Shown: positions 1 through 9,119 of the stretch, piece by piece
Layout: each line of letters opens with the position of its first letter
Position numbering within the stretch: position 1 is the stretch's first letter
IMG/VR virus record: IMGVR_UViG_2698536443_000014
Span: 1 to 9,119 of that record
Source: a virus
Taxonomy: Duplodnaviria; Heunggongvirae; Uroviricota; Caudoviricetes
Length of the DNA: 9,119 nucleotides
Strand: one strand, 5' to 3'
Made by a program: the position numbers and the translations under genes
The notes under the pieces: model-generated
What the model was told of the DNA's origin: nothing
What the model saw: the letters and a program-made list of their open reading frames with translations, nothing else
The model's database searches: none

Positions 1-157
1 CCAGACCCGCCATAACCAGCTGGGTCAGTATTAACTGGCAGCGTTCGCGTGAAAGGTAAGTATTCTGCGCAATCTCCCCGACTGTCGCCGGTTCGGTGAC
101 GCTCAATTCATTAAACACCACTCTGGCGGTTTCGGTCATATCTTGCTGTTTTAGCAT
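1..157 (-). CDS. Partial CDS (5' end only; continues past window start), hypothetical protein with helix-turn-helix-like N-terminus
   Basis: Reverse-strand ATG at 157..155 opens a frame that stays open to position 1 (MLKQQDMTETARVVFNELSVTEPATVGEIAQNTYLSRERCQLILTQLVMAGL...). Not in the supplied ORF track because it has no stop in the window. The GEIAQ...SRERCQLIL segment has an HTH-like pattern. Identity unknown. Confidence 0.35.
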   Translation of the reverse strand, partial: MLKQQDMTETARVVFNELSVTEPATVGEIAQNTYLSRERCQLILTQLVMAGL

Positions 158-276
158 GTCTTTTTCCCTTCTGGTTAACATGACATACCAATAACTCTTG
201 TCTAAAAAGCCAGCAAGATAAAAAGTCAGTATTCACGACCACCAGCGTGTTTACTGTACTGCACCAAGTTTACAGG

Positions 277-304
277 TACAAAAAACCCGCTCAGTGGCGG
301 GTTT
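277..304 (-). terminator. Rho-independent terminator downstream of the 434..1051 gene
   Basis: Perfect 8-bp stem (283-290 AAACCCGC / 297-304 GCGGGTTT) with a 6-nt loop. On the minus-strand transcript the hairpin is followed by a U-run (UUUUUUGU, partly within the stem). It lies about 130 nt after the stop codon at 434. Confidence 0.55.
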
Positions 305-433
305 AAGTTGTGTGGCGAAGTAACCACTCTTAACACACTAATAGCATTTTTGTTATAACACAAGTAGCTCATTCAGTATTTTTAGAATCTTGACTTTCTT
401 AAGCACGGCGAACTCTGAATACCAAACATAAAA

Positions 434-1051
434 TCAATTATCTTCCAGGCCGGATGCTATCAACGAAAGCCTCTCAAAAAACGCTGTAGCAGCCTTGTCC
501 AAAGTTGAATAAGTACTGTATTCTCCGTGTTCGGGACCAACCACTACCCATGGTCGTCTTTTTGGGATTCGGGACTTCTCAGAAATCACTGTTCCAGATA
601 TACCAATATCAATTGTTACACCTGTTATTATTTTCTCTTCATCTCTTTCCCTGAACTCAATTGCCATAAATGCCGTTTTTTTTCGTTTCCCGTTTTTAAA
701 AAAATCAAATAAAGCAAAGCGATGCTCATTAAAATCAACACCCCATCGTCCTTCAGGATAAAGGGCATGAAAGTTGTCATTTACGCTCTGCATCGTCTCA
801 TAAGCTTTAACTTCTAAATCTCCATAGTGCATAGATACCGCGCAGGAGTCACTGGGTAACTGTATTTTCCCAAGATTGAAAACCTTTACTGCTCCAGAAC
901 TATGGCATCTTGCCCGCAATTTATCCCCATTTATACTAATCGGAGAAATATTCCTTAATGTTCCGGGCTGGCTCCCTCCTAAGTAAACGACTGTTAAAGA
1001 TTGCTTATTTTCAATTGCATCAACTAATACATGCTCTACATTTTTATCCAT
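434..1051 (-). CDS. Hypothetical protein, AT-rich accessory (moron-like) gene immediately downstream of Q; function unknown
   Basis: The ORF track gives 434..1078. I prefer the internal ATG at 1051 (MDKNVEHV...) because it is preceded by GGGAGA at about 5-nt spacing, whereas the ATG at 1078 has no Shine-Dalgarno sequence. Stop TGA at 436..434. The gene is visibly more AT-rich than flanking genes. I recognise no family signature in the protein. Confidence 0.6.
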   Translation of the reverse strand: MDKNVEHVLVDAIENKQSLTVVYLGGSQPGTLRNISPISINGDKLRARCHSSGAVKVFNLGKIQLPSDSCAVSMHYGDLEVKAYETMQSVNDNFHALYPEGRWGVDFNEHRFALFDFFKNGKRKKTAFMAIEFRERDEEKIITGVTIDIGISGTVISEKSRIPKRRPWVVVGPEHGEYSTYSTLDKAATAFFERLSLIASGLEDN

Positions 1052-1126
1052 AATAATCTCCCAATGAACAGGTATCATCAGGAGGTTATAATAAAATATG
1101 ATTATTTACTTTGATTGAATTTATTA

Positions 1127-1498
1127 CTATATGTAACAATCAATTTCTAAAGATACCCCCAACATTGCCAGACAACCGTCAATAAACCCTTCAGCTTTCT
1201 GCAGTCTGATAACAACCTGATTAAGTGATATCCCCAGTTTTACCCCCAACACCCGTAATGTAACCCCATACACATAATACATTTCCAGTAATTCGTATTG
1301 ATACGGTTCCTTTTTCTTAAGAACTGTCATCGCAGAGCTAATGATCAGGCCATCGTCATCGCTACATTGCGGGCGGGATTTTACTTTCGAAGGAATTAAT
1401 CCCTTAAAACCTGCAGCAACAGATGACCATTCCACATCCTCGTGATTATTTGCCACCCATGCCCCCCAACGTTCAAGAACCATTTGAATATCACGCAT
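1127..1498 (-). CDS. Late-gene antitermination protein Q (phage 82 / QuuD-QuuQ type)
   Basis: Protein MRDIQMVLERWGAWVANNHEDVEWSSVAAGFKGLIPSKVKSRPQCSDDD... matches from memory the N-terminus of Q82-type antiterminators of E. coli lambdoid prophages. Start taken at the ATG at 1498, preceded by GGAGAAAG; the track's TTG at 1513 is less likely. Stop TAG at 1129..1127. Confidence 0.85.
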   Translation of the reverse strand: MRDIQMVLERWGAWVANNHEDVEWSSVAAGFKGLIPSKVKSRPQCSDDDGLIISSAMTVLKKKEPYQYELLEMYYVYGVTLRVLGVKLGISLNQVVIRLQKAEGFIDGCLAMLGVSLEIDCYI

Positions 1499-1515
1499 CA
1501 ACTTTCTCCACAAAA

Positions 1516-2511
1516 TCAGGCCAGCACGCCTATTGCCAGCGCACGATCGATAAAACGAAATATCAGCTCCAGCTGGGAGCCATACTTCTCTTCAAATGCC
1601 ACGGTATCCGCATGCAGCTCGTCGTGATGCTTTCTGCACAAAGGCAGCACGAAGAGGTCATGCGCTTTTGTACCCATTCCCCCCTGACCGTGGCCTATCA
1701 GGTGGTGGGGATCATCAGCAGGCTTTCCACAACATGCACACGGCTGCGTCTTAACCCAGCGCGTGTACTTTTCGTTAACCCAGCGGCGACGTTTTGGGCG
1801 TAACATAAAAGACTCCGGCGACTCCGGATCCACTTTCAGCGCCAGCACCTTTTTCGCTTTATTCTGGATGATGCTGGTGGCCGGAACCGAAGGCACAAGG
1901 TCACTCTCCCGGGTGACAGACGGCACAACAGGCTTCGGTAATCTCAGTGCCTTACGGGCTGCACTTTCCGGTAAGGCATCCGCCAGATCATTACGAACCA
2001 GCCACCAGCACAGTTCCGGCATTGTCACAACGTGACTGTCATCAAAACCGAGATCCCGACGCACAACAGACAACACCCAGCGGGCACAGTTATCCGTTGC
2101 CATTGATTCCAGCCGTTCCGTGAACTGATCGCGCAGCTGGTTATCGCAGTGCCAGCACAGACGGATTGCGCCCGGCGCGTGTCGCATTGTGGTCATGTTC
2201 TCGCTGTGCCAGTCGGAATGAGGCCACTGGCAACCTTTTTCACGAAGTAACCAGCTTTCAAGACATTCCACGCCACCAGCACGACGGATCACTGCCTCAT
2301 TGCGGAACACGGCCCGAACGGCAGGATCATCCGCCAGCGGTTGTGATGCTGCCGGAACGGCACCACTGGCAAAAGATGAATAACGTTCCGGCTCAGGCTC
2401 CAGCAGGACACGCCCCTGCATAAACAGGGGCATCAGCTCTGAACCGGGTCTGAACAATACGATCCCCATACGCGGGGCAATTTCAGGGGTCAGTAGTGCT
2501 CTCACAGTCAC
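1516..2511 (-). CDS. DUF968-family (YdfU-like) phage protein with C-terminal Cys/His HNH-like motif
   Basis: 331-aa ORF. The C-terminal segment (CACCGKPADDPHHLIGHGQGGMGTKAHDLFVLPLCRKHHDELH) is a typical CxxC...HH...H motif of YdfU/DUF968 proteins that sit upstream of Q in lambdoid prophages. The start is uncertain: the track uses GTG at 2511, one base after the upstream gene's TGA, with weak ribosome-binding context. Confidence 0.65.
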   Translation of the reverse strand: MTVRALLTPEIAPRMGIVLFRPGSELMPLFMQGRVLLEPEPERYSSFASGAVPAASQPLADDPAVRAVFRNEAVIRRAGGVECLESWLLREKGCQWPHSDWHSENMTTMRHAPGAIRLCWHCDNQLRDQFTERLESMATDNCARWVLSVVRRDLGFDDSHVVTMPELCWWLVRNDLADALPESAARKALRLPKPVVPSVTRESDLVPSVPATSIIQNKAKKVLALKVDPESPESFMLRPKRRRWVNEKYTRWVKTQPCACCGKPADDPHHLIGHGQGGMGTKAHDLFVLPLCRKHHDELHADTVAFEEKYGSQLELIFRFIDRALAIGVLA

Positions 2512-2512
2512 C

Positions 2513-3322
2513 TCAATGAACGGTATCGAGCAGCTTTAACAGCTCAGGAAATCGGGATTCGAAGAAATGCGGCTGCGTCTCGCGCGGATTTGCAGGACTG
2601 GTGATGTTCTTGCCGAACATGCAGCCTTTCGCGGTCAGCGACCAGAATTTTTTGATGTTGTTAATCGCGGTACGGCTGTATCGTTCGCGTTGTTCAACGA
2701 TCCCCAGCTTCACCATCTGGTGATATGCCTGATTAGCCGTCAGGCGGATACCATACTGCTTCAGCAGTGCACTCAGTGACAGCGTGGGGCGGCTTGAGCC
2801 ATCAGGCGCGTCAGCAGGAGCATCAATGGCATAGCGCGGTGCCAGATTCGGTAAGCCAACAGCCTCCTGGAGTTTCTGACAGGCCCCAAGCACTGAAGAG
2901 TTAGACAGGTTTAACTCCCTGCGCATAAAGTCCAGCAGAATCACTCCAGCCTGCATCTTGTCAGCAGCCTGCCCGGATAATTTTTCCGGTGCGCTGGTTA
3001 CCATATCGAAAGTACGGATCACCTTCAGATGGAATGACGGGCTGATCCACATTGCATAGGCATACACCAGTTCTTTGCAGACATACGTCCCCTGGTTATT
3101 TCCGCCATTAATGACGCTAACTGGTTGATTTTGTTCCAGAGGCGGAATTCCACCCTCGGTGAAAAGTTGTTCAATCAATTCACAGGTTTGCTTATTGGAG
3201 AGCCAGTATTTCGGGCGTTTTTTTTGTTCTCCCCCGGCTGCCCTGTGCAGATCGTTCAGGCTGTAACGCCCATAAGCATCACGACGAACTTCAATACCAT
3301 CAATGACCATCAGATTATTCAT
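2513..3322 (-). CDS. KilA-N domain protein (antirepressor/Bro-like family)
   Basis: N-terminus (VIDGIEVRRDAYGRYSLNDLHRAAGG...RPKYWLSNKQTCELIEQL...GTYVCKELVYAYAMWISPSFHLKVI) matches the KilA-N DNA-binding domain signature. Strong Shine-Dalgarno (AAGAGGAGAAA) upstream of ATG 3322. Stop TGA at 2515..2513. Confidence 0.8.
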   Translation of the reverse strand: MNNLMVIDGIEVRRDAYGRYSLNDLHRAAGGEQKKRPKYWLSNKQTCELIEQLFTEGGIPPLEQNQPVSVINGGNNQGTYVCKELVYAYAMWISPSFHLKVIRTFDMVTSAPEKLSGQAADKMQAGVILLDFMRRELNLSNSSVLGACQKLQEAVGLPNLAPRYAIDAPADAPDGSSRPTLSLSALLKQYGIRLTANQAYHQMVKLGIVEQRERYSRTAINNIKKFWSLTAKGCMFGKNITSPANPRETQPHFFESRFPELLKLLDTVH

Positions 3323-3341
3323 ACTTCGTTTCTCCTCTTAA

Positions 3342-3731
3342 TCAGGCGGCTGCACCCGCCGTTTTCTCGTACTTACTGATAGTGATCTCGACCTTCCCTC
3401 CCGGGATAACCGATCCCCACTCAACCAGCATTCTTTTCACCTGACTGTCGTCTTCCCACACACCCGCGTGGGTCAGGGCGTCAAACAGCGCCTTGTTATA
3501 GTTGTCCAGATCGCGGATCCGGTTATCCGGAGGAAACAACACGATCTCCACTGAAGCAGGTGCCGACGTTGGTTTCGGCAGACGACGTAACTGCTCAATG
3601 ATGGCGGCACACGCCGCGCTCTGGAATTTTCGTCCCGCCGTGCTTATCAGGCTCTTACCAGCAAACGCCCCTTTGTTGGGGTGTCGCCAGTACGTGTTCA
3701 CGCTGGGCGGAAACGGCAGAATCAGCTTCAT
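3342..3731 (-). CDS. rusA: Holliday junction resolvase RusA (crossover junction endodeoxyribonuclease)
   Basis: 129-aa protein (MKLILPFPPSVNTYWRH...DNRIRDLDNYNKALFDALTHAGVWEDDSQV...) carries the RusA family signature, including the catalytic-region D-x-D-N motif. Start ATG 3731 overlaps the upstream stop (ATGA). Confidence 0.85.
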   Translation of the reverse strand: MKLILPFPPSVNTYWRHPNKGAFAGKSLISTAGRKFQSAACAAIIEQLRRLPKPTSAPASVEIVLFPPDNRIRDLDNYNKALFDALTHAGVWEDDSQVKRMLVEWGSVIPGGKVEITISKYEKTAGAAA

Positions 3732-4054
3732 ACTTTCAGGCCCCTCTCATGTAACCAGTGGGCTGCACGCAGCCTGGCGTTTTCCTCACCGGCAAGCAGT
3801 GAGCGGATAATCCCGACCGCCTCGCTGTCGTCGTCCTTCACCGCGGTATGAAGCGTGATGCCCCGGGCCACGCCACGCTTTATCGTGATGACGCCTTTTT
3901 TCTCCAGTGCGCGAAGATGCTCCACTGCTGCATTCACTGAACGGTATCCCAGCATGGTTGCCACCTCCTGATTGGTTGGCGGAAAGCCACGCTCTTTCTG
4001 GTAAGAAATCAGCATATCCAGCACCTGCTGCTGGCATTGAGTTAACGTCGTCAT
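3728..4054 (-). CDS. LexA N-terminal DNA-binding-domain-like protein lacking the S24 peptidase domain
   Basis: MTTLTQCQQQVLDMLISYQKERGFPPTNQEVATMLGYRSVNAAVEHLRALEKKGVITI resembles the LexA winged-helix DNA-binding domain (MKALTARQQEVF...[36 protein letters not shown]). The ORF is only 108 aa, so there is no autoprotease domain. ATGA overlaps at both ends. Confidence 0.65.
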   Translation of the reverse strand: MTTLTQCQQQVLDMLISYQKERGFPPTNQEVATMLGYRSVNAAVEHLRALEKKGVITIKRGVARGITLHTAVKDDDSEAVGIIRSLLAGEENARLRAAHWLHERGLKV

Positions 4055-4704
4055 GCCGCCATCTCCCTGACAAGTTTTTCTGCCTGCTGGCGAACCTGCG
4101 CCAGAAAGGCCTCACCACATGCCTCAAGTTCATCGCGCCCGATGTAGCTGATTGCCGGTCCCTTCCAGGTCTTGTCGAAAACAGCAATAGCACCAGCGAA
4201 GAACGCTCCTGTCGGCACCTGCTTCTCGTCTTTCGGGATAAACCAGACAGGCAGTTCAAAACCAATACGCCCGCGAATAAAAGCAATATGATCTGCATCT
4301 TCCGGCCACCACACTTCGCTGGTGGCAGCTTTGATCAGGAAAACATAGCGCCCGCCTTTATCACGCATGGCACTGGCATGCTTCATGATGTAACGCATGC
4401 CGGTGATGTATTGCCCCTCATGCTGACTGGCGCGGCTGTATGGGGGATTTCCAAAGGCAGCACCTTTAAGCTCCGCAAGACGTTCTGACCAGTCATGCGC
4501 CAGCGCGTTGTCTTCCGCCGTGTAATACGCGGCGCATTTGGCGTTATCACCGTCAGTAAACAGATCCAGAACAAACGGGCCAAACAGGGTGTTAATTCCC
4601 CAGAAAATGTTGTCCGGTGTGCGCCACTGATCGCCCACTTCCTTCAGTTCATGGGCTGGTTTGTTTCGCAGTTCCACCAGCGCCCGGCAATATTTATTAC
4701 TCAT
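4051..4704 (-). CDS. Phage N6-adenine DNA methyltransferase (Dam-like, NPPY motif)
   Basis: Contains the FGNPPY catalytic motif and upstream DLFTD-type motif typical of phage Dam-family methyltransferases. Start taken at ATG 4704..4702 (MSNKYCR...), which forms a TAATG overlap with the upstream stop; the track's 4737 start is a GTG extension. Confidence 0.8.
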   Translation of the reverse strand: MSNKYCRALVELRNKPAHELKEVGDQWRTPDNIFWGINTLFGPFVLDLFTDGDNAKCAAYYTAEDNALAHDWSERLAELKGAAFGNPPYSRASQHEGQYITGMRYIMKHASAMRDKGGRYVFLIKAATSEVWWPEDADHIAFIRGRIGFELPVWFIPKDEKQVPTGAFFAGAIAVFDKTWKGPAISYIGRDELEACGEAFLAQVRQQAEKLVREMAA

Positions 4705-5192
4705 TAAGCCCCCACGTAATTCCCTGACAGATACCACTCTTCACCTGATGCAGCGCGCTTGCTGCTTTTCCGTAAGCACCGCTCACGACGTGCCAGAAAA
4801 TTGTTTCGTTCTGGCTGGGAGTGGCTTTCACGGAATGCCGCCATCCACACGGTTGCAGCACGACGAAATAAGCCCCTGGACTCCAGTTCTTCCGCCTGGC
4901 GGGCCAGGCACAAAATCACCCGCGGGTCGTTAGTGCCGACATAGAAATTGCGCACAGGTCTGGTTTCACGAACTGGTTGCCGTTCCGCCTCCGGCGATAT
5001 CTTTGTCTGGCGCGGGAAATGTCTGCGTGCATCCCCTTCACAACGGTGAGCCACACGCCCACTCTGACGTAACTTGCTTGCTGACTGCAGAACGCGCTGC
5101 CGTGAGTAACCTGTAAAAGCATCCGCAATGTCTCCGGAAGTACACCCCGGATGGGCTTCAATGAATTTCTGAACGTCATTCAAAAGACTCAT
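4704..5192 (-). CDS. Hypothetical protein with C-terminal PerC/ANR-like motif
   Basis: 162 aa from ATG 5192 (Shine-Dalgarno AGGGGG; the track's GTG at 5198 is 2 codons upstream). The C-terminal segment LARQAEELESRGLFRRAATVWMAAFRE...RRERC resembles, from memory, the conserved core of PerC/ANR-family small regulators. The N-terminal half is unassigned. Confidence 0.5.
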   Translation of the reverse strand: MSLLNDVQKFIEAHPGCTSGDIADAFTGYSRQRVLQSASKLRQSGRVAHRCEGDARRHFPRQTKISPEAERQPVRETRPVRNFYVGTNDPRVILCLARQAEELESRGLFRRAATVWMAAFRESHSQPERNNFLARRERCLRKSSKRAASGEEWYLSGNYVGA

Positions 5193-5194
5193 GC

Positions 5195-6136
5195 TCACCC
5201 CCTGAATCCTGCCGGGATCTGGCTGTAGTCCACGTTGTCGTAACTGGCTTTGAAGTACGGGTCCTCGCGTTTTTCGGTGTACGTGCTGACGGACGGCGAT
5301 AAGCGCAGGGAAAGCTCATCCCATTTTTCCCGCAGCTTCGACGGGCTGAGCACGTTACGGCACCAGAACGGATCGCGACTGACGCGGCTGTACATCTCGC
5401 AGATTTGTTTATGAGTATGACCATCCTGCACACACATCAGGCGAATTTCGTTTGCCCAGGCTGTCCAGTTCGGTTCTTTGGGACGAACCACCTCGCCGTC
5501 ACATTCGGCAGCCTGCTCGTACAGGGCAATGATTTTTTTCCAGAGCCACTGTGCGCAGGTCAAATCATCCTGCGTCCCCCACTGGCGCTTTTTAGGGCTG
5601 AATACAACCGCATCAGGATGGCGAGTTAAAAAATCCTGTTCATCCGTCTGCGTGTCCGGTTGCGAAGCGTCCGGACGAGAAGGTTTTTTATCTGACGGAT
5701 CATGTTTTGATTTTACTGACGGATCCCCGCCAGATTCTGACGGGTGAAAACCCGCTTTTTTACCAGATTTCGACGCATCAAATTTTGACGGGTCAGATTT
5801 TGATGCGTCAGATTTTGACGGGTCAGAATCTGACAGTTGAGAAAATGCCGCTGCCTGAAGCTTCGCAACGTTAAGCTGATAAACATTCGACGCATTGCGG
5901 TTACCCTGGCGACGCGCCTTACGCGTTAACCAGCCTTCTGCTTCCAGCCGTGCGATAGCCGTTCTGACGGTACTCATCCCCGCGCCAATCTGGCGGGCAA
6001 TGGTTTCAATTGATGGCCAGCACACACCTTCGTCATTACTGAAATCAGCCAGGCGGGCCATAATTGCCACGCTGGATAACTTCATGCCTGACGCAGCGCA
6101 ACCATCCCATACATAGCCGGTTAATTTAGTGCTCAT
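5195..6136 (-). CDS. Phage replication initiation protein (N-terminal HTH domain, repeat-rich linker, DnaT-like C-terminal region)
   Basis: The N-terminus (LSSVAIMARLADFSNDEGVCWPSIETIARQIGAGMSTVRTAIARLEAEGWL) is a winged-HTH typical of prophage replication initiators. The central linker is encoded by tandem repeats. The C-terminal region resembles the DnaT-like domain of prophage replication proteins, called from memory. It occupies the O-gene position after cro/cII. Confidence 0.7.
   Translation of the reverse strand: MSTKLTGYVWDGCAASGMKLSSVAIMARLADFSNDEGVCWPSIETIARQIGAGMSTVRTAIARLEAEGWLTRKARRQGNRNASNVYQLNVAKLQAAAFSQLSDSDPSKSDASKSDPSKFDASKSGKKAGFHPSESGGDPSVKSKHDPSDKKPSRPDASQPDTQTDEQDFLTRHPDAVVFSPKKRQWGTQDDLTCAQWLWKKIIALYEQAAECDGEVVRPKEPNWTAWANEIRLMCVQDGHTHKQICEMYSRVSRDPFWCRNVLSPSKLREKWDELSLRLSPSVSTYTEKREDPYFKASYDNVDYSQIPAGFRG
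5690..5836. repeat. Iteron-like direct repeats (candidate replication origin) inside the initiator gene
   Basis: About five tandem copies of a 14-15-bp unit (TCAGATTTTGACGGG, TCAGATTTTGATGCG, TCAAATTTTGACGGG, CCAGATTTCGACGCA, TCAGAATCTGACAG) between about 5762 and 5836, plus degenerate copies with the TCTGACGG core at 5691, 5715 and 5735. In the protein frame they encode S-D-x-S-K repeats. Confidence 0.5.
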
Positions 6137-6145
6137 GACCGACCT

Positions 6146-6484
6146 CTATTTCCCTGAATTTACGACGAAACTGTTCGAGCGGACTGAAGCATTCATGCTC
6201 ATAACCTTCGCGGAGGTAGATAACCCGTTGTGTTTCCGGCTCCCAACGAATGACTCTGACGGGCACTCCGTAGTGATCTTTGAACCAGCGGTTAACTTGT
6301 CGCAAAGGACTGTCTCCTTCTGCCGGTTGAAATCACCCACAGCCCACTCTGCAAAGCTGTGGGTTACAATTTCCCTGTCACCTGGTACATTCACTGCATA
6401 GCAATATTCCACCTTCGCTTTTCCACCCGGAACAGGAAGCGCAATCAGTTGCGAGCGACGGTAGTGTGTTGTTAAACTGTTCAT
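6146..6484 (-). CDS. Hypothetical protein (C-terminal half doubtful; possible frameshift or overlapping gene)
   Basis: Start ATG 6484 overlaps the stop of the upstream CII-like gene (ATGA), which supports a real gene start. The N-terminal ~50 aa look protein-like, but the C-terminal half is Ser/Thr-rich and low-complexity, while an alternative frame over 6126..6305 looks far more protein-like (see findings). Confidence 0.4.
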
Positions 6485-7065
6485 GCGTTAGTTTCTCCAC
6501 AACCAGAAGCAATCGACGCCACGACGCCCGGAGCTGCACACTCGCGGGCGTTACTCTTTTCCGGCGCACAAAAAACACGAAATAACAGTGTTAAATGCTC
6601 CTGCCACTTCGCCATTACTTGGTAGCTGTTCTCTTCGATTTGCTCACGCTCAGCCTGGTCAATAACTCCATCAGCAGTTGCCTTGCGTAAGTACTGGGAA
6701 TGCTTGCCAATCCATTCTATTGACTCCATCAGCCGCTGATTAATGTCACCATTGTCAATGTCATCAATGACCACCAGCGGCACAAACACCCCATTACTAC
6801 GACGGGCTATTGCATCTGTTACATGCCTGGTACCACTGGCATCCTGTAAAACCATGGCCCACTCAAGTGGAAAAATTTGATCCCCACCGCTACGCAGTCT
6901 GTTATGCAATTGATCTTTTGCTGGGGTGATATCATCAGATTTATACAAACCAAGAATTTCTGCTGCTTCCTCATAGCCATGAGGTAAATCAGCAATCGTT
7001 CTTCGTATTGCTGCCACCAGCCATGCTGGTTGTTTATCAACTTTCCATTCAGGTTCTTTACCCAC
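6481..7065 (-). CDS. CII-like early regulatory protein (CP76/YdaT-type position and size), putative
   Basis: 194-aa ORF immediately downstream of Cro, GTG start at 7065 preceded by TGAGGA at about 6-nt spacing. The position is that of lambda cII or of the YdaT/CP76-type CII equivalents of E. coli cryptic prophages. The family call is by context and memory only. Confidence 0.45.
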
Positions 7066-7092
7066 GGTTAATTCCTCATTTCTGTGGTGTTT

Positions 7093-7290
7093 TTATGCCG
7101 CAGCACTGTTAGTCTTTTGATATAAAGACACGTCAACTTTCAGTTTCCCGTTAGTAATTTTTTCTAACTGGTACGCTCGGCCTTCAGGAATAATCTCAGG
7201 CCACTCTGAAACAGACGGATGCTTAATACCTAGGGCTTCGGCGGTTTTACAAACTCCGCCGAAATAATTAATCACGTCGGATTTCCGCAT
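7093..7290 (-). CDS. cro: Cro-like repressor (P22 Cro type)
   Basis: MRKSDVINYFGGVCKTAEALGIKHPSVSEWPEIIPEGRAYQLEKITNGKLKVDVSLYQ aligns along its length with P22 Cro as I recall it (MYKKDVIDHFGTQRAVAKALGISDAAVSQWKEVIPEKDAYRLEIVTAGALKYQ). It is divergent from the repressor gene across the operator region, with Shine-Dalgarno GGGAGA. Confidence 0.8.
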   Translation of the reverse strand: MRKSDVINYFGGVCKTAEALGIKHPSVSEWPEIIPEGRAYQLEKITNGKLKVDVSLYQKTNSAAA

Positions 7291-7321
7291 TTCTGTCTCC
7301 CGTTAAATTACGTTAAGCAGA

Positions 7322-7387
7322 AATGTAGGATATCCAACATGCTAATGTCAAGAATCCTACATGGGCATGTGGTAGGATTGCCTACAT
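7322..7387. promoter_or_regulatory. Right operator region (OR) with pR-like promoter (minus strand) overlapping the presumptive pRM
   Basis: 18-bp near-palindrome ATGTAGGATATCCAACAT at 7323..7340. Further half-site copies ATCCTACAT at 7354..7362 and GTAGGATTGCCTACAT at 7372..7387. On the minus strand: -35 TTGACA (complement of 7346..7351), 17-bp spacer, -10 CTACAT/TACATT (complement of about 7322..7328), directed toward cro. Confidence 0.6.
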
Positions 7388-8039
7388 GATGAACATGAGT
7401 GATCGTATTCGCCAAAGGCGAAAAGAACTGAACCTGACACAACAAGCACTGGCTGATTTGACTGGTGTGAACCGTGTCACGGTTACTGGATGGGAAAAGG
7501 ACGACTACCAACCAAATGGAGCCAACCTTCAAGCCCTAGCCAACGCACTTAAATGCGATCCTCTGTGGCTTGTTAGCGGAAAAGGCTCGCCTGAACCAAA
7601 GATAAATCTAAAACCTGAAATATTCGCAGTTAAAAAAGTCCCCCTAATCTCGTGGGTTCAGGCGGGTTCATGGACAATGACGGAGCCTGGTGTCAGGAAA
7701 GAAGATGCTGAAGAGTGGGTTTATACTACCGCCCTTGTATCAGAAATGGCATTTGCACTACGGGTCCGTGGTGATTCAATGACCAATCCCCTCGGCTCAC
7801 CATCGATACCAGAAGGTTCTATCGTTATCGTAGAGCCAGATATTATTGATACAGAGTGTATTAACGGAAAAATCGTTGTTGCCCATATCAATGGTGGGCA
7901 AGAAGCGACACTCAAAAAATTTGTTGAGGACTGGCCGAACAGGTATCTCGTCCCACTAAATCCTAACTATAAAACTATTGAATGCGGTGAGAACTGTAGA
8001 ATAGTTGGTCTTGTCAAACAAGTAATAATGGATTTTTGA
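7386..8039 (+). CDS. cI: CI-like prophage repressor (HTH-XRE N-terminal domain, S24 LexA-like peptidase C-terminal domain)
   Basis: N-terminal HTH (IRQRRKELNLTQQALADLTGVNRVTVTGWE). C-terminal S24 autopeptidase signature with GDSM serine motif and a downstream lysine (LRVRGDSMTNPL...EATLKKF). Starts at the edge of the operator region, consistent with a short-leader pRM transcript. Confidence 0.85.
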   Translation: MMNMSDRIRQRRKELNLTQQALADLTGVNRVTVTGWEKDDYQPNGANLQALANALKCDPLWLVSGKGSPEPKINLKPEIFAVKKVPLISWVQAGSWTMTEPGVRKEDAEEWVYTTALVSEMAFALRVRGDSMTNPLGSPSIPEGSIVIVEPDIIDTECINGKIVVAHINGGQEATLKKFVEDWPNRYLVPLNPNYKTIECGENCRIVGLVKQVIMDF

Positions 8040-8060
8040 CACATCTTCCTCACTATCGCA

Positions 8061-8085
8061 AAACCGGGGTATCCCCGGTTTTTTT
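8061..8085 (+). terminator. Rho-independent terminator after the repressor gene
   Basis: Stem ACCGGGG (8063-8069) / CCCCGGT (8073-8079) with a 3-nt loop, followed by a T7 run (8079-8085), 22 nt after the repressor stop codon. Confidence 0.6.
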
Positions 8086-8101
8086 ATGAGCCTATCTTTT
8101 T

Positions 8102-8155
8102 ATGTAGGATAACCAACATAAACTCTTGACACTCGCATGTTGGATATCCTACATT
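8102..8155 (+). promoter_or_regulatory. Left operator region (OL) with pL-like promoter
   Basis: ATGTAGGATAACCAACAT (8102..8119) and ATGTTGGATATCCTACAT (8137..8154, the exact reverse complement of the OR site at 7323..7340) flank and overlap -35 TTGACA (8126..8131), a 17-18-bp spacer and -10 CTACAT/TACATT (8149..8155). Spacer and -10 are almost identical to the pR-like promoter. Confidence 0.55.
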
Positions 8156-8313
8156 TGTTTTTAGAGTTGTGGTGAATGCGCAGGCTGATGCGCGAAAGAC
8201 ATTGCAGCTATTGCGGAAAAGAGCTGTTCGGCGGGGCAATTAAACGCCCGTGAGAGTCTGAAATAACCGCAAGCCGGAGATCAGCATCGGTCACCACAGC
8301 AGCCACTGCTTTG

Positions 8314-8360
8314 GCGGTACCAGTTTGTACACTTGCTTCCGGCTGGTACCGCTCTTTTTA
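8314..8360 (+). terminator. Long hairpin plus T-run in the pL leader (terminator-like; boxA-like CGCTCTTTTTA overlaps its 3' side)
   Basis: Perfect 10-bp stem GCGGTACCAG (8314-8323) / CTGGTACCGC (8343-8352) with a 19-nt loop, followed by TCTTTTTA. CGCTCTTTTTA at 8350..8360 resembles the boxA consensus (CGCTCTTTA). The long loop makes efficient termination uncertain. Confidence 0.4.
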
Positions 8361-8482
8361 CAAAACAGAGAAGAGCATCACCGGACGACGGGCTCATAAC
8401 CCAATCCACCCGGGCGGCTGCCACCGCAGGTGTTCTTCTCTGTTTTGTGGAGAAACTAATATCTTGTGCAGAGGAAAATAGA

Positions 8483-9029
8483 ATGAAATTACCAAAATTT
8501 CGTAACGCAATTGTGTACCGAGCAACATTACCTAGTATACAGGCTATTGAAGGTCATCTTCTCGAACTCCCTTATTCTGAAATCGGGGAAACAGAATTTT
8601 CACGGTCCTCTTTTGTAGAGAATCCTGTCACTGGTGAACTGGTAACTCCGATATCTGGTGGGTACGCAATGGTAATCCGTCATGATCAGAAAATAATTCC
8701 CCGACATGTCGTCATGAAAGAAGCTAATTCTCGAATCCGAACAATCGAAAATATGTCCGGGAATAAATTAAAGCGTGCCGAACGACTGGCCATTATTGAT
8801 AACGTACGAGTAGATCTATGCAAACAGGCATTTGTTAAGTCTACGCTGATTCTTGCATTGTACAGCACTGATGAGAAATTATTGGTAATCAACACAACCA
8901 ATAAAATAATAGCCGGTATGGTATGCGCAATGCTGATTAAGGTTGTCGGTTCAGTGAAAACAGAAACAATCAACATCAGTGATATCAAGAATGGACTGAC
9001 TACACGCCTGAATAACTACATCAATGGTG
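8483..9029 (+). pseudogene. RdgC-family recombination-associated protein gene, 3'-truncated by IS1 insertion
   Basis: ATG 8483 with Shine-Dalgarno GAGGAAAA; the track's 8333 start is a TTG extension through the leader. N-terminus MKLPKFRNAIVYRA matches the RdgC N-terminus (MLWFKNLMVYRL as recalled), with further colinear similarity over about 180 aa. The frame ends at a TAA (9032..9034) supplied by the IS1 terminus; full RdgC is about 300 aa. The gene is AT-rich. Confidence 0.6.
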
Positions 9030-9119
9030 GGTAATGACTCCAACTTACTGATAGTGTTTTATGTTCAGATAATGCCCGATGACCTTGTCATGCAGCTCCA
9101 CCGATTTTGAGAACGACAG
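9030..9119 (-). mobile_element. IS1 insertion sequence, terminal 90 bp (right inverted repeat end; element continues beyond window)
   Basis: 9030..9119 (GGTAATGACTCCAACTTACTGATAGTGTTTTATGTTCAGATAATGCCCGATGACCTTGTCATGCAGCTCCACCGATTTTGAGAACGACAG) matches the reverse complement of the IS1 right end, including the terminal inverted repeat GGTAATGACTCCAACTTATTGAT, with about 2 mismatches. Compared from memory. Confidence 0.85.
9045..9119 (-). CDS. insB: IS1 transposase InsB, 3' end (partial; start lies beyond window end)
   Basis: The minus-strand frame reads ...LSFSKSVELHDKVIGHYLNIKHYQ followed by a stop (TAA, complement of 9045..9047), which matches the InsB C-terminus as I recall it. Confidence 0.75.
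   Translation of the reverse strand: MSFSKSVELHDKVIGHYLNIKHYQ

Follow-up and report, generated by a model that had tools for sequence, protein, structure and literature searches.

LexD, a protein with a LexA-type DNA-binding domain and no protease domain, is encoded by a common accessory gene of lambdoid prophages

The LexA variant S119A is reported to be non-cleavable and the natural cleavage fragments of LexA to be removed by ClpXP (bioRxiv 10.1101/2020.07.14.201889), and the lexA3 allele is reported to block the SOS-dependent induction of Gifsy prophages (PMC3121763). Phage-encoded proteins with effects on this circuit have also been described: gp7 of GIL01 is reported to bind LexA itself (PMC4551915), and AriS of a Listeria phage to regulate the SOS response (PMC9043618). 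Furthermore, Gifsy prophages are described as carrying a LexA box beside dinI, downstream of the replication genes, and a LexA-controlled dinI-antirepressor operon (PMC3121763). In this study, we analysed a 9,119-nucleotide stretch of DNA (positions 1 to 9,119 of the IMG/VR virus record IMGVR_UViG_2698536443_000014, hereafter the window), which is the immunity-to-Q segment of a lambdoid Escherichia coli prophage and which encodes a 108-amino-acid (aa) protein with a LexA DNA-binding domain only, here given our own label LexD. LexD very probably functions as a sequence-specific DNA-binding protein that is insensitive to RecA and is produced early in the lytic cycle; binding to SOS-box-like operators, with uncleavable repression there, is put forward more tentatively, as a real possibility.

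In acting as proposed, LexD would resemble LexA3 Ind-, S119A and the LexA N-terminal fragment in providing a LexA DNA-binding activity that RecA* cannot remove. However, LexA3 Ind- and S119A, unlike LexD, keep the LexA dimerisation domain and the exact recognition surface, and LexD terminates in GLKV as opposed to the new C-terminus exposed by LexA cleavage. Similarly, LexD would join gp7, AriS and the prophage DinI homologues as a small phage-encoded protein acting on the LexA/RecA circuit; gp7 and AriS, as reported, act protein-to-protein, whereas LexD is proposed to act on DNA, and neither of the two is described as a LexA-domain homologue in the abstracts and titles of the respective reports.

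LexD belongs to the PF01726 domain family and to PHROG 362. Its residues 1–65 matched the complete Pfam model LexA_DNA_bind (PF01726; positions 1–65 of 65) with an E-value of 2.9e-19 and 69 bits (cut-off 23.7), and residues 1–108 matched positions 1–106 of the 106-position PHROG 362 profile (E 1.4e-59, 199.9 bits). Additionally, E. coli LexA was matched when the PDB sequences were searched with phmmer (E ~1e-15). An AlphaFold2 model of a single chain, built on an alignment of 17 family members and with a mean predicted local distance difference test score of 83.2, displayed helices at residues 6–22, 28–35 and 40–52, a beta-hairpin wing at residues 56–68 and further helices at residues 75–88 and 93–103. 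The top Foldseek matches of this model were the LexA chains 3jso, 1lea and 1jhh, with root-mean-square deviations of 1.0–1.3 Å over 67–70 residues at 48–51% identity, and on residues 1–69 of E. coli LexA the model superposed at 1.0 Å and 50% identity. The resemblance to the LexA N-terminal winged-helix domain, which an initial annotation of this DNA had claimed and for which it had proposed structure prediction as a check, was thus borne out. Compared with the E. coli LexA N-terminal domain (PF01726; 1LEA, 3JSO), LexD is alike in fold, in approximately 50% identity over residues 1–69, in S39, N41, A42 and E45 and in the RGI of the wing, and differs in the lack of an S24 domain and of Ser119/Lys156, in the replacement of E44 by Val and of R28 by Asn, in an extra two-helix tail of ~35 aa and in scoring under the LexA equivalog.

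LexD is not a LexA: it has neither the protease domain nor a usable cleavage site, and its score falls short of the equivalog. Peptidase_S24 (PF00717) was not matched in LexD in the Pfam scan, the protein ending at residue 108, and among the 16 open reading frames (ORFs) of the window that were scanned this domain was present in the CI-type repressor alone. The LexA equivalog TIGR00498 gave 70.8 bits, below its cut-off of 110.95, and the match was confined to model positions 1–91 of 203. The earlier statement that an S24 autoprotease is absent therefore stands, and LexD cannot self-cleave as LexA does. The sequence LLAGE of LexD aligns with the LexA cleavage-site sequence VAAGE, and A88-G89 was considered as a cleavage site that would make LexD cleavable in trans. 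This candidate was rejected, as only close relatives share the motif, distant members having VERES, LTRKE or IDDQP in its place; an Ala-Gly self-cleavage site within a hinge was not found in LexD, where A88-G89 lies in a predicted helix, is unconserved and is accompanied by no catalytic domain. Judging from these alignments, the similarity would be at most a vestige.

The LexA contact residues used for comparison were taken second-hand: S39, N41, A42, E44 and E45 are listed as DNA-contacting (PMC3091678), N41 and E45 being reported to contact bases and R28 the backbone (bioRxiv 10.1101/2020.07.14.201889). LexD of the window retains four of the five helix-3 contact residues (S39, N41, A42 and E45) together with the wing R64-G65-I66. 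An exhaustive HMMER search returned 4563 matches at E <= 0.001; most of the matches listed span the DNA-binding domain only and many are ~200 aa long, the size of LexA, and approximately ten clusters at 50% identity display the whole architecture of DNA-binding domain, linker and tail in 105–135 aa. LexD shares the features by which its own family is defined, namely a length of ~105–135 aa, a LexA DNA-binding domain, a short linker and a conserved two-helix tail. Across a family alignment of 17 members, which extends down to 39% identity and covers several enterobacterial genera, S39 and the wing RGI are present in all members, N41 in 16 and E45 in 13, and position 42 is always small (A, S, T or G). 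In the tail, a linker at residues 71–75 that is modelled with low confidence or disordered precedes the two C-terminal helices, and the family consensus reads EAVxxIRALLAxEENARxRAxxWLxxRG, with A97 and L101 invariant. The tail alone (residues 69–108, window positions 3728–3850) gave no Pfam match. By analogy with other proteins that combine a winged helix-turn-helix with C-terminal helices, it may be a dimerisation or partner-binding element; BlaI/MecI-type repressors, which have this architecture, were among the weaker Foldseek matches. As a separate observation, many database proteins of 140–350 aa carry two LexA-type DNA-binding domains per chain (P0132, P0133, P0148, P0152, P0153, P0156, P0160 and P0164), an alternative, two-headed binder without the S24 dimerisation domain.

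Selection was assessed by the ratio of nonsynonymous to synonymous polymorphism (pN/pS) in 43 distinct LexD alleles from IMG/VR loci, which amounted to 0.025 for residues 1–69 and 0.40 for the tail. By this measure strong purifying selection acts on the DNA-binding domain, meaning that DNA binding is maintained and that the gene is not a decaying fragment. A functionless, decaying remnant of a captured lexA would account for the truncated LexA-like sequence, for a LexA alignment that extends to LLAGE facing VAAGE and for the dispensability of the gene (see below). However, such a remnant is already contradicted by the selection and conservation data, namely the pN/pS of the DNA-binding domain, a reading frame that is intact in 2222 E. 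coli genomes at 95–100% identity, and a full-length family whose tail is conserved down to 39% identity across several enterobacterial genera, and is regarded as highly improbable.

With respect to expression, the reverse strand reads GAGATGGCGGCATGACGACG and CTGAAAGTATGAAGCTG at the two junctions of the LexD gene, and the three stop/start junctions on which the initial annotation had based a tightly coupled operon are all present in the sequence (Table 1). In the promoter scan, pR upstream of cro was the sole good sigma-70-like promoter on the minus strand, and the region near 3700–5200 yielded no minus-strand site comparable to it. Because pR is the only good promoter on this strand, the LexD gene is counted, from the gene layout, as a delayed-early gene of the pR operon, and its transcript probably originates at pR.

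It is proposed that LexD is an accessory delayed-early protein of the lambdoid prophage, made from the pR transcript and translated by coupling within the PerC-like/Dam/LexD/RusA string, only after the CI repressor has been inactivated. The protein would descend from the LexA N-terminal domain and retain a working winged-helix DNA-binding surface, with the two-helix tail, in place of the protease/dimerisation domain, most likely providing dimerisation. The best guess for its targets is LexA-box-like operators composed of CTGT-type half-sites, in which the spacing or one base may differ. There it would be a repressor not removable by RecA*, and some of the host or prophage promoters under LexA control would return to repression during the depletion of host LexA. 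The contact residues and wing conserved in the family, the low pN/pS of the DNA-binding domain and the conserved, predicted helical tail support this reading; the dimerisation by the tail, the identity of the DNA target and the repressing effect are those parts of the best explanation that we infer. The idea of an uncleavable LexA mimic is plausible on these sequence features.

A number of observations, given in this and the following paragraphs, weigh against this reading. LexA residues E44 and R28 occur in none of the 17 family members, position 44 being V, A, F, L, T or Y, while four members have I, L, G or D in place of E45 and one has Y in place of N41; these replacements occur in some lineages while the enterobacterial SOS box stays the same. 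The recognition helix varies most in an N-terminally extended subfamily (E45 to I or L, N41 to Y), in which the upstream box stays canonical. Going by the alignment, the loss of E44 and R28 throughout the family argues for altered specificity or weaker contact. Additionally, dimerisation by the tail is a prediction from the architecture of the protein, and Kim and Little reportedly found in 1992 that the isolated LexA N-terminal domain binds weakly. Full-text searches of the literature yielded no experimental or functional work on the LexD gene; a paper on Gifsy-1 STM14_3218-3220 (PMC9879122) proved unrelated. The family-wide loss of E44 and R28 would also suit a sequence-specific regulator with its own, non-SOS operator, whose LexA-like fold reflects ancestry only and which controls phage genes, for example in the nin region, in Q or late timing or in superinfection functions. 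Recognition-helix positions 42–45 vary by lineage, as such a regulator would lead one to expect, the tail as modelled would impose a dimer geometry unlike that of LexA, and the label of PHROG 362 is only generically 'transcriptional repressor'. Conversely, the residues S39, N41 and E45 and the wing remain LexA-like, and the window offers no candidate for such an operator, its inverted or tandem repeats being only the CI/Cro operators (7323–7340 and 8102–8154) and the iterons of the O gene. A regulator with an operator of its own is possible, if somewhat unlikely.

No comparative signal between LexD and SOS boxes emerged. In the window there was no exact CTGT-N8-ACAG match, and a weighted 20-mer scan detected no SOS box, in agreement with the initial annotation, which had noted no obvious box there. 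Matches with one mismatch numbered five where 3.0 were expected; five or more also occurred in 33 of 200 shuffles, which places these matches at chance level. The weighted scan was performed with our own script, which yielded 0.26 matches per genome in shuffled mEp460 at a threshold of 18; this threshold was applied to SfII and to 80 near-identical IMG/VR prophage loci with 10-kb flanks, chosen by a 97–98% identical RusA. Strong SOS boxes were present in 41 of the 70 loci with LexD and in five of the ten without it, and a comparative link between LexD and phage SOS boxes was thus rejected; this absence of association would equally suit the above-mentioned regulator with its own operator. In mEp460, near-perfect boxes were located upstream of a dinI-like gene (two), inside the repressor gene (one) and at the start of a late DNA methylase (one), while perfect boxes lie inside cI of SfII and inside the S24 repressor gene of locus L001, and those of the 80 loci sit inside cI genes and before late methylases. 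Returning to LexD as a binder of SOS-box-like operators, the near-perfect boxes of its relatives mEp460 and SfII could be its targets.

The positions of these boxes deserve separate description. Perfect or near-perfect LexA boxes of 20 bp occur within the coding sequences of CI-type (S24) repressors (TACTGTTTTTATATACAGTA, from SfII cI, as well as TACTGTTTTTACATACAGTA and TACTGTTTATAAATACAGTA), at 29167–29186 in SfII (L100), 31970–31989 in mEp460 (L093) and 836–855 in L001, and at about -3200 to -5600 relative to RusA in the 80 loci (L101–L180). Their distance from the start codon is ~165–230 nt, prophages both with and without LexD carry them, and cI of the window has no such box. We know of no described role for LexA boxes inside CI-type repressor genes; they could point to an internal or antisense promoter under SOS control, or to a roadblock. 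A further conserved box, (T/C)ACTGTAAAAATAAACAGTG (late methylase box TACTGTAAAAATAAACAGTG), coincides with or shortly precedes the start of a DNA methylase gene downstream of Q (41021–41040 in mEp460, 7739–7758 in L008 and ~+3400 to +5200 from RusA in L101–L180), which suggests a LexA-controlled late-region methyltransferase.

In the distant, N-terminally extended subfamily, a near-consensus SOS box heads the LexD operon (L005 4560, L008 4561, L011 513 and L012 3242), and from this arrangement LexD would be directly SOS-inducible there. These Gifsy-like operons (L005 4560–5608; L008 4561–5357; L011 513–1718; L012 3242–4602) comprise the SOS box, an optional dinI or a 95-aa 'RecA_C'-like ORF, a conserved 75–82-aa protein (motif PDTGYA..RC....VVA...SFP...RA.MYR), LexD and a conserved 66–67-aa protein (MKKGWFQHDNL...), followed by RusA and/or DUF968 and then by Q where the contig reaches that far. 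The 75–82-aa protein may be a GfoA/GftA-type antirepressor and is a candidate for this role, and the intergenic DNA just 5' of LexD (CCTGAACAACCAGC.ACCTGCTGCGCC) is unusually conserved among L005, L008 and L012. In placing LexD after an SOS box, sometimes with dinI, and after the 75–82-aa protein, the four loci resemble the Gifsy operons, whereas LexD of the window lies in a pR operon with no such box, and in SPN3UB, a Gifsy-like phage with the same SOS-box operon, a different gene takes the place of LexD. The pR and SOS-box contexts are alike in that LexD would be made when host LexA is gone, which fits the idea of a LexA mimic. The more far-reaching proposal that LexD is an SOS super-repressor immune to RecA, made only post-induction or from a Gifsy-like SOS-box promoter, is considered unlikely.

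LexD is exactly absent from 10 of the 80 RusA loci (L014, L018, L044, L048, L062, L071, L078, L079, L082 and L090), in which the Dam stop overlaps the RusA start via the same ATGA; the junction reads GGTGGCATGAAGCTG without LexD and GGCGGCATGA[324 bp]...GTATGAAGCTG with it. LexD therefore behaves like a 324-bp cassette bounded by ATGA junctions and is dispensable to the phage. Its surroundings were sampled from contigs encoding homologues and from annotated phage records, L010 being too short to judge. Where the homologue is 39–51% identical, RusA follows LexD directly, usually with a 4-nt overlap, in L001, L002–L004, L006–L007, L008 and mEp390, and one small gene separates the two in L005, L009 and L012. 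The gene upstream varies (Dam, C5 or D12 methyltransferases, a replication protein or small ORFs), a DNA methyltransferase being present in L001, L006/L007, L008, L009 and the window, and DUF968 lies downstream in most lineages examined. The LexD gene of the window likewise belongs to a lambdoid nin region, where a junction nuclease, DUF968 and then Q lie downstream of it. This neighbourhood, together with a Proteus homologue that precedes NinG, another junction nuclease, could be explained if LexD were not a transcription factor and instead a DNA-binding accessory or targeting factor for RusA, the DUF968 HNH protein or the DNA methyltransferase. However, RusA and Dam occur without LexD in the ten loci named above, L011 and Klebsiella phage ST846-OXA48phi9.1 have LexD but no RusA (both with the order LexD, a 67-aa gene, DUF968 and Q), and RusA lies upstream of the LexD homologue in Edwardsiella EPP-1. 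An obligatory pairing of LexD and RusA was thus rejected. Furthermore, gene order in lambdoid phages is kept by descent, rendering synteny weak evidence, and RusA is a homodimer that acts without partners. A role as such an accessory factor is judged quite improbable.

The LexD gene is not new; it is a very common, already annotated and dispensable accessory gene of lambdoid prophages, and the unusual discovery implied by the initial annotation does not hold. The 1.5-kb Dam-LexD-RusA stretch is 96–98% identical in 41 phage records covering at least 80% of it, which include SfV (orf42), SfII (SfII_44), mEp460 (mEp460_046, annotated 'LexA DNA binding domain protein') and Stx2a, Stx2c and Stx2k phages. 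The protein is 100% identical in vB_EcoM-689R6, 1720a-02 and Stx2a_1447 and 98–99% identical in SfIV and cdtI. Compared with SfV orf42, SfII_44, mEp460_046 and the cdtI, Stx2a and Stx2c genes, with 95–100% protein identity and a shared Dam/LexD/RusA/KilA-N/DUF968/Q neighbourhood, the window provides one more copy. The 327-bp gene is present in 2233 of 5426 complete E. coli genomes (41%), with up to four copies per genome, and protein-database clusters named 'LexA family transcriptional regulator' (NCBI) contain thousands of E. coli members. In a survey of Shiga toxin (Stx) phages, LexD corresponds to pham 237 (pfam01726) in 15 phages, with no functional study there (PMC8136144). Some records misname LexD as 'SOS-response repressor and protease LexA' or 'RecA-mediated autopeptidases' despite the lack of a protease domain. 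Similarly, several RefSeq phage records call the Dam-type methyltransferase 'phosphoadenosine phosphosulfate reductase', a likely error; PHROG 33262, the top PHROG match of the window Dam, bears this name. The records concerned by either misnaming are NC_003444.1, NC_021857.1, NC_019716.1, NC_049941.1, PP925833.1, KF030445.1, LR595862.1, AB285204.1 and LR595868.1.

On the minus strand of the window, the gene order is cro, cII-like, DUF4222, O-like, PerC/YfdN-like, Dam, LexD, RusA, KilA-N, DUF968/HNH and Q (Table 1). The Dam start was placed at the ATG at 4704–4702, as in the mEp460 and SfII records, the mechanical ORF list extending to a GTG at 4737. The O-like gene is not followed by a helicase-loader gene of the lambda P or DnaC type; a PerC/MarR-like 'YfdN' gene takes this place, its GTG start overlapping the O stop by 4 nt. 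Within the O-like gene, a 15-bp unit, CAGATTTTGACGGGT, is repeated about four times at positions 5764–5834, together with palindromic GTCAGATTTTGAC elements; these repeats underlie the low-complexity segment 'DPSKSDASKS' and are most likely origin iterons. An 18-bp palindrome, ATGT(A/T)GGATATCC(A/T)ACAT, occurs at 7323–7340 between cro and cI and at 8102–8119 and 8137–8154 downstream of cI, these sites presumably serving as OR and OL in this immunity type. E. coli RdgC is a RecA antagonist, and through its RdgC-like ORF the prophage may carry a second early gene acting on the RecA/SOS system. Downstream of Q, a 214-aa ORF (434–1078, minus strand) gave only a sub-threshold match to a WYL domain (16.3 bits) and no PADLOC match, and may be a moron. 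Membership of a defence system was rejected, as the sole PADLOC match was a marginal one to CARF-HTH (18 bits), regarded as generic helix-turn-helix similarity.

Table 1. Coordinates of the LexD gene, its parts and junctions and the other features of the window
Feature	Position	Strand	Details and basis
LexD gene	3728..4054	-	108 aa; ATG 4054-4052, TGA 3730-3728; ORF list
LexA-type winged helix-turn-helix, residues 1-69	3848..4054	-	AlphaFold2, Foldseek, pN/pS
S39, just ahead of recognition helix	3938-3940	-	alignment to LexA
Recognition helix, residues 40-52, VNAAVEHLRALEK	3899..3937	-	alignment to LexA
Linker and tail, residues 70-108	3731..3847	-	AlphaFold2; no counterpart in LexA
ATGA, Dam stop/LexD start	4051..4054	-	read from sequence
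ATGA, LexD stop/RusA start	3728..3731	-	read from sequence
TAATG, PerC-like stop (TAA)/Dam ATG	4706-4702	-	read from sequence
pR-like promoter 5' of cro	7322..7351	-	promoter scan, 10/12 matches (TTGACA / TACATT); overlaps operator palindrome 7323-7340
Antiterminator Q	1127-1513	-	
DUF968/HNH protein	1516-2511	-	
KilA-N protein	2513-3322	-	
RusA-family Holliday-junction resolvase	3342..3731	-	129 aa; Pfam PF05866 56.7 bits; PHROG 34
Dam-type phage N6-adenine DNA methyltransferase	4051..4704	-	217 aa; Pfam PF05869 155.7 bits; TIGR01712 256 bits (cut-off 97)
PerC/YfdN-like protein	4704..5198	-	Pfam PerC 34.5 bits; PHROG 1324; heads the overlapped gene string
O-like replication initiator	5195-6136	-	
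DUF4222 gene	between cII-like and O-like genes	-	
cII-like gene	6481-7065	-	
P22-type cro	7093-7290	-	
CI-type prophage repressor	7386..8039	+	HTH_3 and Peptidase_S24 (Pfam)
RdgC-like ORF, downstream of cI	8333-9034	+	Pfam PF04381, 79 bits

The present analysis adds to the existing annotations the distinction between LexA contact residues that are retained and those that are always missing, the tail, the cassette-like presence or absence of the gene and its two expression contexts. Mutagenesis, persistence, the induction of prophages and the release of Shiga toxin are driven by the SOS response, and the carriers of LexD include Stx2a and Stx2c phages and Shigella serotype-converting phages. 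Should LexD recognise SOS operators, a second repressor of the LexA kind, one that DNA damage does not switch off, would be present in four of every ten complete E. coli genomes, which could alter induction dynamics, prophage crosstalk and toxin output. If it were to act as a super-repressor, LexD would take over the operators of LexA during the destruction of the host protein, thereby shutting down host SOS functions and, in co-resident prophages, silencing the antirepressors, dinI genes and methylases that LexA controls, so that an induced phage would control the damage response of its host and suppress its competitors. In that case, the presence of the gene in 41% of complete E. coli genomes would amount to a widespread, unrecognised layer of SOS control.

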